This document shows, one piece after another, positions 3,118 through 49,082 of a stretch of 64,000 nt of DNA (positions are counted from its first letter, which is position 1; each line of letters opens with the position of its first letter). The notes below the pieces were generated by a model, which saw only the letters and a list, made by a program, of their open reading frames with translations, was not told the origin of the DNA and made no database searches. The translations under genes and the position numbers were made by a program. This DNA is from a phage, in the NCBI GenBank assembly GCA_027263115.1, contig GCA_027263115.1_3656.1; one strand, given 5' to 3'.

Positions 3118-3563
3118 AACAGATATAGCTCCTTATGAAAGTGGTCTTTTAATTTCTCACTGAGAAACTTCTTGATACCTTCCTCTAAAGTGTTTTCGAT
3201 GTAGTCCAGCTTAACTGCTTCGATGGACATATCATAGATCGCCAGCTCTAAGCTGTCAAGTCCCATCATAGCATGAACCATAAGATTTTCATCTTCAGAT
3301 ACATTCAGGGGGCTTCCTATAACATCTGGAGGCAGAATAGTTTCCCAATTATTCTGGGCGGTAGTTCTCCCTCCCTCTACTTTACGGCGCAGTTCGAATG
3401 TGTTCTTAGTGTAGAACACTTCATAAGAAACGATACGACTGTCGCTCTCATAATAAACGAAGTTCAGGTAGGAGCCTAGCCGCAGTCGGCAAACTTCCAC
3501 CCCAAACCATTGTTTCTTATAAGAATTCAGGCTAATGCTGTCGCATTCACGTTTGCTCAACAC
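3114..3563 (-). CDS. hypothetical protein
   Basis: 149-aa ORF, overlaps upstream stop. Confidence 0.5.
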   Translation of the reverse strand: MLSKRECDSISLNSYKKQWFGVEVCRLRLGSYLNFVYYESDSRIVSYEVFYTKNTFELRRKVEGGRTTAQNNWETILPPDVIGSPLNVSEDENLMVHAMMGLDSLELAIYDMSIEAVKLDYIENTLEEGIKKFLSEKLKDHFHKELYLL

Positions 3564-3578
3564 GGCTCTCTCCTTTTA

Positions 3579-3812
3579 TTAATCTTCGTAAATCAGGATT
3601 TCTGCTTTAGGTTTTCGTGCTTTCAGGTCCAGCTCTATCCAGTGCACCATAGCTGTTTCAAGAAAAACAGCTTGGATGCATCCGTCCTCAGCGTGCCCCA
3701 CCAACATAACGAGATCTTCACCTTCGTCATCTGCATCACGAACATAAAGAATCTCTCCAGATTCAAAGTCTTTCACAACCTGATTGCTAGATAATTTACG
3801 AATTTTTGCCAT
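3579..3812 (-). CDS. hypothetical protein
   Basis: 77-aa ORF. Confidence 0.45.
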   Translation of the reverse strand: MAKIRKLSSNQVVKDFESGEILYVRDADDEGEDLVMLVGHAEDGCIQAVFLETAMVHWIELDLKARKPKAEILIYED

Positions 3813-3813
3813 A

Positions 3814-4077
3814 TCAGAAACCCTCTAAAAAGCTCTTGTAGAAAACAATCTCAGTATCCACACCAGTCACAATCTTGTCGTTCCTGATTTCATCGGTAAG
3901 ATAGGTGTCAAAACGCAGAACCTGTGTGGTGTTGTCACACATCCACTCAGCTGTGACCATTGCGAAAATCTTAGCATCTTCATTATCTGGTGTGAATGTT
4001 ACCACCTCACCGCACTTAAACTTTTCGATAGGTTGAGTGTTAGCTTTCGGTTCTGCGATAGTGATTTTTGTGGTCAT
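3814..4077 (-). CDS. small protein, tandem paralog 3 of 3
   Basis: 87 aa; same length as the two upstream ORFs, shared N-terminal pattern, ATGA overlap. Confidence 0.55.
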   Translation of the reverse strand: MTTKITIAEPKANTQPIEKFKCGEVVTFTPDNEDAKIFAMVTAEWMCDNTTQVLRFDTYLTDEIRNDKIVTGVDTEIVFYKSFLEGF

Positions 4078-4340
4078 TATTCTCCTCCTTCTTTTGAATA
4101 GCTTGTCTCTCCAAGGATGGTAATTTTGGTGTCAAGCTCTGTAACTTTCATGTTTGGTGGCAGATCGTACAACTCATTATTTTCTAAATCGAACCCCCAC
4201 ACACAATGTTCTCCTGTTTTGACAATCATAACTATGTTTTGAATGCCGTCTCCGTCGCAACTTACCACGGTCCCACACGGAAAGCTGTCTGCACGCTTTT
4301 TGTTCTTCACCTTAGAATTGAATACAATGCTGGTAGCCAT
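4077..4340 (-). CDS. small protein, tandem paralog 2 of 3
   Basis: 87 aa; MATxxxFxSxxKxKK start shared with the 4340-4603 paralog. Confidence 0.55.
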   Translation of the reverse strand: MATSIVFNSKVKNKKRADSFPCGTVVSCDGDGIQNIVMIVKTGEHCVWGFDLENNELYDLPPNMKVTELDTKITILGETSYSKEGGE

Positions 4341-34211: not shown

Positions 34212-34540
34212 CAGAGATCATCGTTTCAACTGCAGGGTATGTATTCCTGACAATCATTGCGTTGGCTATTCTGGTGGCGGTGTATGGATTTGTTATCCTG
34301 CCTATTCTTGAGACATTTAGCTTGTGTCGGTGTTGGAGAAAAGCTTACGGACCACAACCGTGGAAAGACTGGTTTCATTTGGTGCGTATAGCGTTCTCTT
34401 ATGCCTATGATCACTCCAGCAGTGCATGCGTAACCGGGTACCATGCCTACAACTGGAACTGGGAAGGGCTGGGGAGATGGACTGTTACAAAAACTATACC
34501 CTTACGGTTGTATAAAGGAAAGAACACACTGGGAGCCTGA
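34208..34540 (+). CDS. hypothetical membrane protein
   Basis: N-terminal hydrophobic helix VFLTIIALAILVAVYGFVILPIL. Confidence 0.5.
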   Translation: MTEIIVSTAGYVFLTIIALAILVAVYGFVILPILETFSLCRCWRKAYGPQPWKDWFHLVRIAFSYAYDHSSSACVTGYHAYNWNWEGLGRWTVTKTIPLRLYKGKNTLGA

Positions 34541-34570
34541 TATTTTAAGTTATCAGGTTGCCAGAGATCA

Positions 34571-34605
34571 GGAGGATTTCTAAAATGGATTTCCTCCTTT
34601 TGATA
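34571..34605 (+). terminator. intrinsic terminator
   Basis: ggagga...tcctcc hairpin followed by TTTT. Confidence 0.5.
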
Positions 34606-34839
34606 TTTTACCTACCAGGATATTTTAAAATCCTTAGAAAATCAGAAAATGGATCGAAAACTAAAATGGATTTTTCAGAGCAGGCACGACGAGATGAACC
34701 ACTCATCCTATCGTCTGCACCATATTCCAGACCACCATTACAGATTTCCCGCACATGCTCACACCCTTCTACTAGAACTTCCCCCACTTACCCTTGACCT
34801 TTTATAGTAATAATCCAACCACTACCTTGAAGTTGTGGC

Positions 34840-35110
34840 GCAGCTTTCCAAGTACTCGATCTGTTTTTCGTTTCAAAGATTGAATTTTCTGAAAATTTTT
34901 CTCGATAAATTTCTCAGTACTCGATCTGTTTTTCGTTTTCTGAATCTGATTTTCTGGAAATCGTTCCGGCTCTCGACCTGAAATTTTTGGGGACGAAATC
35001 GATTTTTCGTTTTCAGAAATGGATTTTTAAAATTTCTATATGGGAATATTTTAGTGGATACTATTTTATAGGAAATTGTTACGGAGGGTAATTAGCGTGC
35101 TAATTAAATT
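34840..35110. repeat. non-coding direct-repeat region
   Basis: 23-bp direct repeat agtactcgatctgtttttcgttt at 34851 and 34916; tttttcgttttc motifs; palindrome taattagcgtgctaatta at 35089-35106. Confidence 0.6.
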
Positions 35111-35175
35111 TATTAAATGCGAGGAGTTCTCATTTAGAATTTTGAATGATAATCATTCTCGTTTGCAGAATAACG

Positions 35176-35198
35176 GGCAGGCCCGGTGATTGTCTCCC
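35176..35198 (+). repeat. copy A of palindromic ggcaggcccggtgattgtctccc element
   Basis: 23 bp identical to the reverse complement of part of 44620-44662. Confidence 0.6.
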
Positions 35199-35314
35199 GG
35201 CCCCTACTGCCCCGGCTTGTTATTATAGTAACACACAGGACAAAGAAAGCAAGAAGTTTTTGCATAAATTTTTAGACGATAATGATAATCGTTCTCATTT
35301 CATGCAGCGCCCAT

Positions 35315-35351
35315 CCCCGGTGGTTGTCTCCCCCGTCACCGGTGCCTGCCG
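35315..35351 (+). repeat. copy B of the same palindromic element (right half)
   Basis: ccccggtggttgtctcccccgtcaccggtgcctgccg, about 90 percent identical to the reverse complement of 44620-44662. Confidence 0.55.
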
Positions 35352-35554
35352 TCCTTTCGATAGGTATATTTTGCCACCTGGCGGGGCCGCTGTCAACACT
35401 TTTCAAAAAAATTTCTAACCTGATGCGCTGACCGCTGCAACCTGGCGGGGCCAGCCTGGCAGGGCCTAACTGACCAGGTAGGAGAGAATGAAGGCTTGCA
35501 AACCTGGTGGGCCTATGCTATAGGATAGGTAACAATTGAAGAGGAGGTACAAAA

Positions 35555-39720: not shown

Positions 39721-39809
39721 ATAAAGTGTTGCAATAATCTAAAAACCTGCTATATTAAAACTCAAGGGGGCAAGACGTTTGCCCCACACAAAACAAAGAG
39801 GAAAACATT

Positions 39810-45806: not shown

Positions 45807-46226
45807 ATGAACATTAAATCTAATAATCCGGCATATAGCTTTGATAACGCTTTTTGTCACGGTCCGGCGGCGAAAGGATTCGAAATCGATGGTAAACTAA
45901 TTATTGTCAATGTTGACGGGGAAGAGGTTGCAGTATATCCGGTGGCAGACGTAAAAAGCCGTTTACAATGCCGCATTGATGTTACCGCCTATCAGCTTGA
46001 TCCGGTCCGCATAGTTGCCCTGGTCCTGGAAGAAGAAATTAAAGCCATGCACCATAGCAACAGGTTTATTGGTGACGCTCAGGATAATATGAAGGTGTGC
46101 CGCCATAAAGTTAATGAAGTGCTTAAAGAGTACGGCTATAAAGATCTTATGATCAAACGTGATGAAAAATTCCGGTACCGTAACGACCTGGCAAATCGAA
46201 TCTATGAAATATACGAATCATTATAA
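45807..46226 (+). CDS. hypothetical protein
   Basis: 139-aa ORF with AAGAGG RBS; last gene of the rightward block. Confidence 0.55.
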   Translation: MNIKSNNPAYSFDNAFCHGPAAKGFEIDGKLIIVNVDGEEVAVYPVADVKSRLQCRIDVTAYQLDPVRIVALVLEEEIKAMHHSNRFIGDAQDNMKVCRHKVNEVLKEYGYKDLMIKRDEKFRYRNDLANRIYEIYESL

Positions 46227-46244
46227 TTTTTTAACTGAATTATC

Positions 46245-46269
46245 AAGGGGCTTAGGCCCCTTTCTTTTT
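46245..46269 (+). terminator. intrinsic terminator
   Basis: aaggggc-ttag-gcccctt hairpin followed by TCTTTTTG. Confidence 0.7.
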
Positions 46270-46880
46270 GTCTGATCTTCCCCCTACCATAAACGGCCCT
46301 ACCTGGCAAGTGGAATAATTGACGAGCCATCAACCCCACACACTGTACAAATATACATGTAAAATAACTATTGCATAACTTTTCATTGTGTGGTAGCAGG
46401 GCTATTTTTACCCGTTTTTCCTTCCAAAATTGCACGTAATGCAGCTATTGCACAAAATTTAACCTGATGCATATCTTCAGTGTCTTGTCAACAACTAAAA
46501 ATCTTTATAAGTCATGCACTTACATAACCACAAAAGCGTGCTCTACGTGAAAAATCGAGTATAACTATAGCCGCCAGATCTCAGAATTTACGTACGCTCA
46601 CCATTCTATAGTCTGCTAAGTATTTATTCCAACCATAGAATAACGGAATAGTCAATACCTGCATAAAATAATTATTCGTGTAAACTGCATAACATAAATC
46701 AGCTTAGGTGTCAACATTTTTCGTAAACAGTCTGAAATTATCACGATGAGTTATCATAAACAGAGAAATCTTTAGTCGTCTAATGTTTACTGTACGTTAC
46801 TATACTAACTGAAATCATTAGATGACTAATAGAAAGATAAGAAATAATTAACAATACAATTATTTTATCTGTAACAATAA

Positions 46881-47166
46881 GGCAACTATGCAAACGAATG
46901 GCATGGCGCGACGGAGTCGCGACATAATATAAAAGCAGTAACCATCACCCCCGTGATAGTTTGTCTGCAATCTATTAATCAGATCATAGTTGCCTTGTAT
47001 TTAGTTAATCATGACATAACAAGCAAGGCAACTATAGATCTGCTAATAGTTGCCCTGCTTTTATATTATGTCATAGGAACGCCCGAAGGGGTGACCTAGT
47101 CACCTGGCATAGCCAGCGAAAGATTATTAACTTGGTAATAGTTATCATGCAAACGAATGGCATGGC
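46881..47166. repeat. nested inverted-repeat structure flanked by 20-bp direct repeats
   Basis: direct repeat atgcaaacgaatggcatggc at 46888 and 47147; 18-bp inverted repeat gacataatataaaagcag (46921) vs ctgcttttatattatgtc (47055); 12-bp inverted repeat atagttgccttg (46986) vs caaggcaactat (47024). Confidence 0.6.
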
Positions 47167-47177
47167 TTATCATCTCT

Positions 47178-47300
47178 GTGTAAACAGTCAATCATGTAAA
47201 CTATTAGATATGTAAACAGTAAAGGGCGTGAACAGTAAGCGAGGGAATAGTAATAGCGTGAATAGTGACAGCGTAAACAGTGACAGCGTAAACAGTCAGG
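47178..47300. repeat. iteron-like GTAAACAGT repeats
   Basis: at least six copies of GT(A/G)AA(C/T)AGT, including two tandem 15-bp units gacagcgtaaacagt at 47267-47296. Confidence 0.6.
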
Positions 47301-47400
47301 CATGTCAATTATGTCATATTGTGTCACCATTATGTCACTATTGTGTCACCAGTATGCCCAGTATGTCAATTGAGTCTAAAGTGTCAAAGGTGTCAGACAA
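47301..47400. repeat. 10-bp-periodic TGTCA tandem array
   Basis: about ten units (catgtcaatt, atgtcatatt, gtgtcaccat ...) each containing TGTCA or a near variant at helical-turn spacing. Confidence 0.6.
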
Positions 47401-47859
47401 GTTTTTCTCCTCTTTGTCAAGTGCTGCATGAAAAATTTACAAGCTTGTATGGTAGCATTTTTGCGGCCCGTTTACATTCAGTGATGTATGTATAACCCTT
47501 GTTGTGTGGGAGTTTAGACGTCTAGACGGTTGGAAGTCTGCAGGTCAATATCTAATCTATCGGCTGCTAACTATATCCCACACAAATAGTAAGAAATATA
47601 ATTGTTATATGTGTAAACAGTAACTCATGTTATCAATCCCTGTATGGATCGCCAGTGGTGCGCATAATGGGTATTATGTTAAATTGCCCGTAATGATAAC
47701 AGTTCTCACAATGATAGGTATTCTCATTCATCCACACAAAATAGGTTGCAAATGTTGTGCCACTGTGTGAACGGCCTGGCCTATTAATTTCTCTCACTGC
47801 CTCGATATTTGAGGATTGTTATAAGAATGAGAAGTATTCCCATTCCGTCCGCCTGGCAG

Positions 47860-48180
47860 CGCTCCTGTAGGTCCTGCAAGGACTCTAGCTGAAAGCTAGA
47901 CCCTTCGGGCCTCCCTGTAGGTCAGGTCAAAATCGTGGCAGAACTGAGCCTGTTCAGATATTTCTGGCTGACTCTTCAGGTCTGTGTGGGAAAAGCCAAC
48001 CTCTCCGGCGGGGCAGGGGAGGGAGGTAAATTAAAAAATTTACGTGGTGTATGAAGCGCTCTTCAGGTAAGGCAGGTATTATGTGATGAAACCCTCTTCA
48101 GGCAATGATATTTGTGGGTGTGATATTTGCTGGAAAGCCAGATATGACGGGACTCCCGGCGGGGCAGGGGTAGTACAGAC
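47860..48180. repeat. G-rich direct repeats
   Basis: CCGGCGGGGCAGGGG at 48004 and 48155; CCTGTAGGTC at 47864 and 47914; CTCTTCAGG at 47972, 48059, 48094 (also 48508 and 49156). Confidence 0.5.
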
Positions 48181-48866
48181 GGGGGAAATATGGGGATGTA
48201 GTTGGGGAAATTGATCAGGCAGGTAGAGTATGGAATATGTTACAAGTATGTTAAATATGGAGGTTGAATATCTGTAGGATTTGTGTGTAAAATCAAAGAC
48301 TTAAGTGGTGTTGTGGTATTTTCTATAAATAATTCAAGTTTAATAGGTAATATTTGCCTCTATCCACTTTGTGTGGTAAACAGATTCAGATGAGATTAGT
48401 TTACAAGTGTATACATAATATACAAATTAAAGATACAAGAAACCCCCCTCCCCCCTTCGGCTACCATTCACCTTTTCCTCTGACTGGTACTTAAACACTT
48501 ATTCAGACTCTTCAGGTTATCACCCATATATCATATGGCAGTGACTGGTGTCCTCCGGCCCCTCTTTCGTCACCCGTCCGCTTCGCCATGCTAATGCCAT
48601 AGCTAATGGTTCGGTTGTTCACCCTGTTCACTCAGGTGTATCTCTATACCCCTTCAAACCGAAGAGAACAGAAAACCCGAATTACTCGGTAAAAGAAAAG
48701 AGAAGAACTTAATTTTATCAGGATAGGCAAGAATGTCAAGGCATGACTGCTCACTAAACAAGCAAACAGTCATGTGTGGGAGGTAAGTGATTGTGGTGGT
48801 AGGAAATTTAGTTGAAAGATGTGTTATAGGTGCTTCCAGCACTTTAGCCGGGCAGCTAATTGTGTG

Positions 48867-49082
48867 TCAGTCCAGCGGTTCATCCTCTACTTCACTGAAA
48901 TCAATGTTCATGGTCTCTTCCCAACCATCGATCTCAGCACAAGAGTGGAGTTCTTTAGGGTTTACTCCCAAAGCCTCAGCAACAGAGTCTATATTTAACA
49001 CCTCTGGCAGGTATGATTCATCGAATTCAAGGTAAATCAGGCCACGAGTGTTGTCAGCTCCACCAAATATCTCTATCTTCAT
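48867..49082 (-). CDS. small acidic protein
   Basis: 71-aa ORF, last gene of the leftward block. Confidence 0.55.
   Translation of the reverse strand: MKIEIFGGADNTRGLIYLEFDESYLPEVLNIDSVAEALGVNPKELHSCAEIDGWEETMNIDFSEVEDEPLD

Follow-up and report, generated by a model that had tools for sequence, protein, structure and literature searches.

We analysed a 64,000-nucleotide stretch of phage DNA (NCBI GenBank assembly GCA_027263115.1, contig GCA_027263115.1_3656.1; called the window throughout) and in it the 2.6-kb region at positions 46270-48860, which is crowded with short repeats and lies where rightward and leftward genes converge. The region most probably (we put the probability at about 0.8) represents the genome terminus, or concatemer junction, of a Vequintavirus with ends of the T7 type, and would carry the signals by which terminase recognises and cuts the DNA. 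Alignment with close relatives shows positions 47396-47853 to be the predicted counterpart of the 458/459-bp direct terminal repeat that those relatives bear at both ends of their virion DNA. A terminus and packaging feature of this kind is already in the literature for congeners and is ordinary for the genus. The new points are modest and small: a consensus for the edges of the repeat, the relation between an array of short repeats and the cut site, and a re-reading of the termini of Vibrio phage ICP1.

Judged by its sequence relatives, the source phage is a Vequintavirus, an rV5-like myovirus of E. coli. A record search returned 122 phage records that match the 2.6-kb region at 90-99% identity, nearly all of them Vequintavirus. 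In the rV5 paper the counterpart of the region is drawn as a "non-coding" box (104013-106618) between ORF163 and ORF164, and is left unexplained. Alignments and conservation counts given below for the region refer to 14 genomes. Most of the region was 90-100% identical across them, and the unstable segments were 47070-47119, 47170-47370 (the iteron and TGTCA arrays described below) and 47863-47912.

Predicted position of the genome ends

The GenBank records of phages HdK5 and EdH4 carry an exact 459-bp repeat at both ends; base 1 of each record corresponds to window position 47853 and its last base to 47396. Terminal redundancies of 458 bp were reported for both phages by Korf (2019), with the ends called where most reads stop abruptly. 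In Gotham, another Vequintavirus, 459-bp repeats were described and the same start sequence was found in all virions. In phage Bas54 the corresponding 2.5 kb are labelled "terminal repeat region" in an Aionostat preprint (2025), at coordinates that agree with the database matches of the window. The equivalent of 47853 or 47396 is the exact first or last base of at least nine GenBank records, and records starting exactly at one of these positions came from other submitters as well (bov10K2, bov11CS3, bov22_2, YN3, ECP2309 and EcoIv14a_Aya). Many GenBank entries were seen to start or stop inside the region at recurring positions, and the mapping of the HdK5 and EdH4 record ends indicates that the window carries the equivalent of the terminal repeat once. 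The repeat and the DNA on either side of it are as follows:

47299-47395, plus strand: TGTCA array, eight units on one strand (47303-47395), 9-11 or about 20 bp apart and phased at about one helical turn.
47396-47853, no strand: equivalent of the direct terminal repeat, 458 bp, in single copy in the window as in a circular or concatemer map, and predicted to lie at both ends of the virion DNA.
47854-47923, no strand: right-edge flank, an indel hotspot with alternative small hairpin cassettes between CCTGTAGG repeats.

Both edges of the repeat were conserved. At the left edge, TGTCA^GACAAG (the caret marks the edge here and below), the last unit of the array abuts the repeat, and this sequence was identical in all 14 genomes. 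The extended left edge, TGTCA^GACAAGTTTTTCTCC, was essentially invariant, with single substitutions in a T-run in two genomes. The right edge, CCGTCCGCC^TGGCAGC, read GCC^TGGCAGC in 13 of the 14 genomes and GCC^AGGCAGC in rV5. A 26-mer spanning the left edge was found in one contig of IMG/VR, where the match was internal. The array proved to repeat the outer half-site of the left cut and to terminate in the cut site itself, and its copy number varied from 3 to 9 between genomes. On the other side, the indel hotspot starts ten bases past the right edge, and four states of it were observed: no insert, cassette A (the state of the window), cassette B, and B in an extended version. The cassettes, at the homologues of 47863-47912, are unrelated hairpins of 35-80 bp, each flanked by GCACT/CCTGTAGG repeats. 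The terminal repeat is stable, and the DNA directly outside each edge is fluid.

Repeats around the terminal repeat

The preliminary description of this DNA listed four repeat families in the region, namely nested palindromes, iterons, a 10-bp periodic TGTCA array and G-rich direct repeats. All four were recovered, and all stood above chance when motifs were counted and folding was compared with that of shuffled sequences. The families were enriched 8- to 100-fold in the region, and Tandem Repeats Finder placed five of its 26 rows for the window there, in 4% of the sequence. The features outside the repeat, and one pair of boxes within it, are:

46270-46871, no strand: unique AT-rich DNA on the inner side of the right genome end, with an inverted pair of GTAAACAGT at 46723 (plus) and 46785 (minus).
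46872-47072, no strand: nested palindrome module, four copies of GGCAACTAT in the order plus, minus, plus, minus, with perfect 18-bp outer arms at 46921-46938 and 47055-47072.
47179-47296, plus strand: iteron array, about eight units of GTRAAYAGT at 15-16 bp spacing, six exact and two degenerate.
47694-47726, no strand: two tandem AATGATAnnnnTTCTCA boxes inside the terminal repeat.
47965-48175, plus strand: G-rich repeat units, CTCTTCAGG ... CCGGCGGGGCAGGGG, in two copies, just inside the left genome end.
48470-48866, minus strand: near-invariant block, almost 100% conserved, holding a leftward sigma-70-type promoter.

The G+C fraction of 46001-47000 (0.368) was the lowest 1-kb value of the window. 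Mean identity to the window across 46270-46871 was 90-98%, and the segment contains no intact conserved open reading frame (ORF). The 20-bp direct repeats that bracket the palindrome module next to it (ATGCAAACGAATGGCATGGC) are at 46888 and 47147. Four copies of GGCAACTAT occur in the region, compared with two in the rest of the window, and 46865-47110 treated as single-stranded DNA gave a folding energy of -56.6 kcal/mol, compared with -23.7 kcal/mol for shuffles (z = -10.6). Thirteen genomes had the module in almost unchanged form; in FV3 it is absent owing to a deletion between the 20-bp direct repeats (46888-47166). In rV5 and LL12 the central loop of the palindrome has an extra 33-bp insert.

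GTRAAYAGT was found eight times in the 2.6-kb region as against twice in the other 61 kb. Exact copies ranged from one to six in the 10 genomes scored, with degenerate copies interspersed. Of the two G-rich motifs, CCGGCGGGGCAGGGG occurs twice in the region and nowhere else in the window, and CTCTTCAGG four times in the region and twice elsewhere. The promoter in the near-invariant block (48739-48712, minus strand) is near-consensus, TTGACA-16-TAAAAT with a TG, and is aimed at the terminal repeat; no conserved counterpart of a promoter reading into the repeat was found in the two more distant phages compared below, KPP-1 and ICP1. A further short motif, TGTGTGG/CCACACA, is about 8-fold enriched, with eight copies within 46270-48860 and others at 39790, 44746 and 45089. 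Outside the region CCACACA stands between terminator hairpins and the ribosome-binding sites of rightward genes, and it may be a motif of 5′ untranslated regions or of RNA processing.

A common sequence at the cut sites

When the edges of terminal repeats from three genera were read from outside to inside, the six known edges followed the pattern TG-Y-Y-A^R-R-C, with one exception (T for A):

Homologues of the window: gTG-TC-A^GAC (left) and cTG-CC-A^GGC (right).
KPP-1: gTG-CT-A^GAC and tTG-CT-A^AAC.
ICP1, positions 431 and 891: gTG-TT-A^AGC and tTG-CT-T^AAC.

The chance of a match to TGYYA^RRC in fixed register is about 1 in 4,096 per edge. Within the 2.6-kb region the full pattern was present at the two repeat edges only.

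The phages most like the window, EdH4, HdK5, Gotham and Bas51/Bas54, are 92-96% identical to it, have identical edges and share the same iteron, TGTCA and palindrome families. Relatives within Vequintavirus differ only in repeat copy numbers and in the small cassette at 47863-47912, and their published descriptions give the length of the repeat, not the detailed anatomy.

The Mydovirus KPP-1, a Klebsiella phage, was reported to have a terminal repeat of 514 bp, with twofold coverage and a T7-type call by PhageTerm. Its repeat also lies in a gene-free gap, of 1.8 kb, on which genes converge from both directions. Around each of its edges, 60 bp matched the opposite edge of the window in exact register, at 28/60 and 29/60 positions compared with 26 for the 99th percentile of the null distribution. 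As in the window, a palindrome (here with 21-bp arms) stands at a similar distance, 300-500 bp, beyond the corresponding edge, and the opposite side has G/C-run elements; that the C-runs are on the top strand fits the reversed orientation proposed for this phage relative to the window. In contrast, the two regions could not be aligned overall, the flanking genes are unrelated, and KPP-1 has dispersed copies of TTGCTA/TAGCAA instead of tandem TGTCA or GTAAACAGT arrays. Homology of flanking genes gave no matches with which to orient either KPP-1 or ICP1 to the window, and both were oriented from the edge motifs alone.

Barth et al. mapped the ICP1 termini to a 1.3-kb orfless space, at 431 (plus) and 891 (minus), and interpreted the pair as a pac site for headful packaging. 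As in the window, the termini, 461 bp apart, lie in a gene-free, repeat-rich region, here between gp1 and gp2, and both fit TGYY(A/T)^RRC. The differences are that the genes flanking the ICP1 region diverge, that similarity past the cut-site pentamer is marginal, and that the site was published as headful pac. HNL01, an ICP1-like phage, has a 383-bp terminal repeat. From the spacing, strands and sequence of its ends ICP1 may have a short direct terminal repeat rather than headful packaging.

Taken further, the Vequintavirinae and the ICP1-like phages may share one way of making ends, in which terminase would nick inverted 5′-TGYYA^RRC sites at the edges of 380-510-bp repeats, guided by phased arrays of half-sites (TGTCA in Vequintavirus, TTGCTA in Mydovirus). 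We advance this tentatively, judging it somewhat more likely to be wrong than right. If it were true, the ends of ICP1 would be fixed and its genome would carry a terminal repeat of 461 bp in place of a headful pac site.

The concatemer junction of phages T7 and T3 consists of a short direct terminal repeat with flanking arrays of short repeats, pac signals and a hairpin intermediate. The region studied here resembles it in having a gene-free exact repeat of at most a few hundred bp, adjoining short-repeat arrays and a nearby inverted repeat. In both cases the DNA polymerase belongs to family A, and in rV5 there is a gp4-like helicase-primase as well. They differ in that there is no sequence similarity, in that a 137-kb myovirus is compared with a 40-kb podovirus, and in that the flanking genes here point toward the ends on both sides. 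The window phage also uses promoters of the host sigma-70 type and shows no sign of a single-subunit phage RNA polymerase; the coupling of packaging to transcription in T7 therefore cannot simply be assumed. In the pac site of P1 and in pacL/pacR of SPP1, the position of cleavage is flanked by a helix-phased motif of 5-7 bp in several copies. Helix-phased short motifs at the cut are thus common to these sites and the window, but P1 and SPP1 package by the headful and have permuted ends, as opposed to the apparently fixed ends here. The phi92-like phage BME3 (PP239276, 342-bp repeat) could not be used in the comparison between genera: its record has the terminal region duplicated with Ns. In that record the terminal gene-free region is present about 2.5 times over, which has the look of a misassembly at the terminal repeat.

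Fur-box-like palindromes

The two tandem AATGATAnnnnTTCTCA boxes inside the terminal repeat resemble the Fur-box palindrome TGATAATnATTATCA and were conserved in all 14 genomes. With up to three mismatches allowed, TGATAATnATTATCA occurs 17 times in the window, compared with 5.7 expected. The gap of KPP-1 has five such sites within two mismatches (3400-4160; 0.07 expected), ICP1 has a site with one mismatch (ICP1_2006_E, 713-800), and BME3 has perfect sites. Fur-box-like palindromes are strongly enriched in the gene-free terminal regions of these three phages and, with the window, recur within or close to the terminal repeats in four genera. The half-site they have in common is often TGAGAAT rather than TGATAAT, and the binder could therefore be a phage protein instead of Fur. 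As a bolder addition to the idea of a shared way of making ends, these recurrent terminal sites might be targets of host Fur, or else of a phage protein that is conserved, in an architectural or regulatory role.

Proposed processing of the genome ends

If the region is a concatemer junction, replication would yield concatemers joined head to tail, in which a single copy of the repeat separates successive genome units, and terminase would recognise the junction. The TGTCA units, which end in the cut site, would be the most likely sites of its assembly, and the iterons and GGCAACTAT palindromes are candidate sites for accessory proteins. Terminase would then nick opposite strands at the two inverted edges, 5′-TG-Y-Y-A^R-R-C from outside to inside, and strand-displacement synthesis over the 458 bp would copy the repeat, leaving a full copy at each end of the packaged genome. 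The flanking terminators would hold both converging transcription units out of the junction.

Several observations weigh against this account. Nicking followed by displacement is the model proposed for the processing of T7 concatemers, and it is borrowed from that phage. The ends of the window phage are predicted by homology, at 92-96% identity, and we infer the roles of the TGTCA array, the iterons and the palindrome, for which the binding proteins are putative. FV3 has no palindrome module, which would either be dispensable or have been lost from that sequence in assembly or cloning. The consensus at the edges is short, and across the window TGYYA^RRC occurs at chance level (35 sites, about 31 expected); because it is no more frequent than expected, it cannot act alone. 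Finally, the rV5 paper describes the genome as circularly permuted, and PhageTerm analysis of other vequintaviruses (the bov phages and BpE1AUH) gave "circular permutated" or headful (PAC) calls. To the studies that inspected read ends directly we give more weight than to these calls.

Coding potential and flanking genes

The preliminary description placed the region at the meeting point of two gene blocks, and this was confirmed: the rightward array is closed by a terminator (46245-46262, plus strand) and the leftward block ends at 48867. The terminator is:

46245-46269, plus strand: Rho-independent terminator, a 7-bp GC-rich stem followed by a T-run (hairpin and T-run at 46245-46262), closing the rightward gene array.

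A terminator is annotated at the equivalent spot in Murica, HdK5 and EdH4. The last gene of the leftward block (48867-49082, minus strand) has a coding signature across the 14 genomes, with 5, 4 and 17 variable columns at the first, second and third codon positions. The region itself had been described as free of ORFs of 60 or more amino acids except for two that overlap repeats. By mechanical calling there are four that touch the interval, at 46202-46435 (minus), 47145-47330 (minus), 47228-47431 (plus) and 48654-48842 (minus). None is credible as a gene, and to this extent the description stands. Those that were compared with relatives showed stops, frameshifts or flat variation by codon position, and none of the four was coding-like. 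ORFs that some annotators place at 47965-48175 were frameshifted in relatives. The ten longest ORFs of the region had no match in PHROG and one sub-threshold match in Pfam, which was discarded as an artefact of the TGTCA repeat. The only ORF inside the terminal repeat (47627-47770), which weakly resembles an ORF of KPP-1, has no coding signature and was rejected as a gene. The prospect raised earlier, that homologous phages would reveal a decayed coding segment, was not borne out in the relatives, and the region was non-coding in all 14 genomes.

The six flanking genes gave no Pfam match above threshold and fall in PHROGs of unknown function, and no terminase gene is annotated within 3 kb in three annotated relatives. 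One gene beside the region, of 139 amino acids (45807-46226; phrog_12277, function unassigned), is accessory. It was present in eight of 13 relatives at 91-98% amino-acid identity and absent from HdK5, EdH4, A142, HMD-6 and FV3. Co-variation of this gene with iteron number was considered and rejected, the gene being simply absent from five of the 13. For the same reason the view that conservation is higher in the non-coding DNA than in the coding flank was dropped.

Alternative explanations

A replication origin, a packaging or genome-terminus region and a cluster of non-coding RNAs had been offered as roles for the region. Of these, packaging at a genome terminus held up, the support for an origin is circumstantial, and the RNA cluster found none. 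The region might mainly or additionally be an origin, at which a phage or host protein binds the GTAAACAGT iterons and opens AT-rich DNA or extrudes the palindrome, possibly late in infection and linked to packaging; we regard this as possible and rather doubtful. Some eight evenly spaced iterons do adjoin the most AT-rich kilobase of the window, although an iteron array is a necessary feature and not one specific to origins, and the palindrome is strong (z = -10.6). In ICP1, whose DNA polymerase is 46% identical to that of the window phage, coverage late in infection peaks beside the analogous orfless terminal region, and the authors proposed a pac-linked rolling-circle origin. However, cumulative GC skew reaches its maximum at 48-50 kb, as at a terminus, and its minimum at the divergent point near 7 kb. 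Skew is confounded with the direction of transcription, as the rV5 authors noted; in their search for an origin by skew the changes, including one at 104425-105475, coincided with switches in transcription direction. Also against an origin, no initiator-like gene was found among the six flanking genes in Pfam or PHROG, the number and sequence of the iterons vary widely among genomes otherwise 93-96% identical, the palindrome is absent in FV3, and a second non-coding stretch (34540-35550) is at least as origin-like.

In a very unlikely alternative, the region is a pac site at which headful series start with imprecise cuts, giving a permuted genome without a fixed terminal repeat. This is how rV5, the bov phages and BpE1AUH were described, and ICP1 was read likewise. 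Against it, inspection of read ends in two laboratories gave fixed ends and an exact 458/459-bp repeat, KPP-1 showed twofold coverage over 514 bp with a T7-type call, and both edges are sharp and conserved; the "pac" positions of ICP1, 461 bp apart on opposite strands, are what a short terminal repeat would be expected to give, and no terminase gene adjoins the region within the 3 kb covered in the three annotated relatives. Non-coding RNA genes clustered here, transcribed for example from the strong leftward promoter at 48739-48712, are quite improbable. The near-consensus promoter does lie inside an almost 100% conserved block, and there are several hairpins. In contrast, Rfam gave no match for the whole window at the gathering threshold or for the region at permissive E-values, and no transfer RNAs were found. 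The RNA fold of 48425-48706 was no better than that of shuffles (z = -1.4 on the minus strand and 0.0 on the plus strand), the conserved parts, including the palindrome arms, are too invariant to show covariation, and the absence of a comparable promoter from KPP-1 and ICP1 also speaks against such genes. It is hardly credible that this DNA is a spacer with no function or a coding segment in decay. Some annotation pipelines do call many small ORFs here, but these are not conserved as reading frames and gave no protein family above threshold. The region is mostly 90-100% conserved with repeat families enriched 8- to 100-fold, and a second genus, with almost no sequence in common, shows the same arrangement.

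Other observations

The second non-coding stretch, 34540-35550, is ORF-poor and repeat-dense, with three tandem 65-74-bp repeats (34842-35027) and a local dip in GC skew. It holds two units of a Fur-box-like palindrome with a GC-rich hairpin (35145-35200 and 35277-35340), and ACCTGGCGGGGCC occurs in it twice, adjoining CCTGGCAGGGCC. Conservation of this candidate origin or regulatory region extends over 122 Vequintavirus records, and Enterobacter phage FENT2 matches 70 bp of it as well.

In the 2.6-kb region, identity to E. coli rV5-like phages is 93-95% for nineteen UNVERIFIED records that are labelled "Campylobacter phage" (MG0656xx) and give C. jejuni as host. These records are probably mislabelled or come from contaminated isolates.

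Significance of the genome ends

Correct ends matter for assembling, rotating and engineering rV5-like phages, which are popular in therapy, and exact ends help to tell real recombination breakpoints from assembly artefacts. The paper on the type phage and several PhageTerm-based reports still say that the genome is circularly permuted, which makes a precise placement of the repeat and its edges useful. The re-reading of the ICP1 "pac" site bears on how the satellite PLE interferes with ICP1 replication and packaging. The common cut-site pattern, together with the half-site arrays, provides a testable model of how ends may be made in this group of phages.

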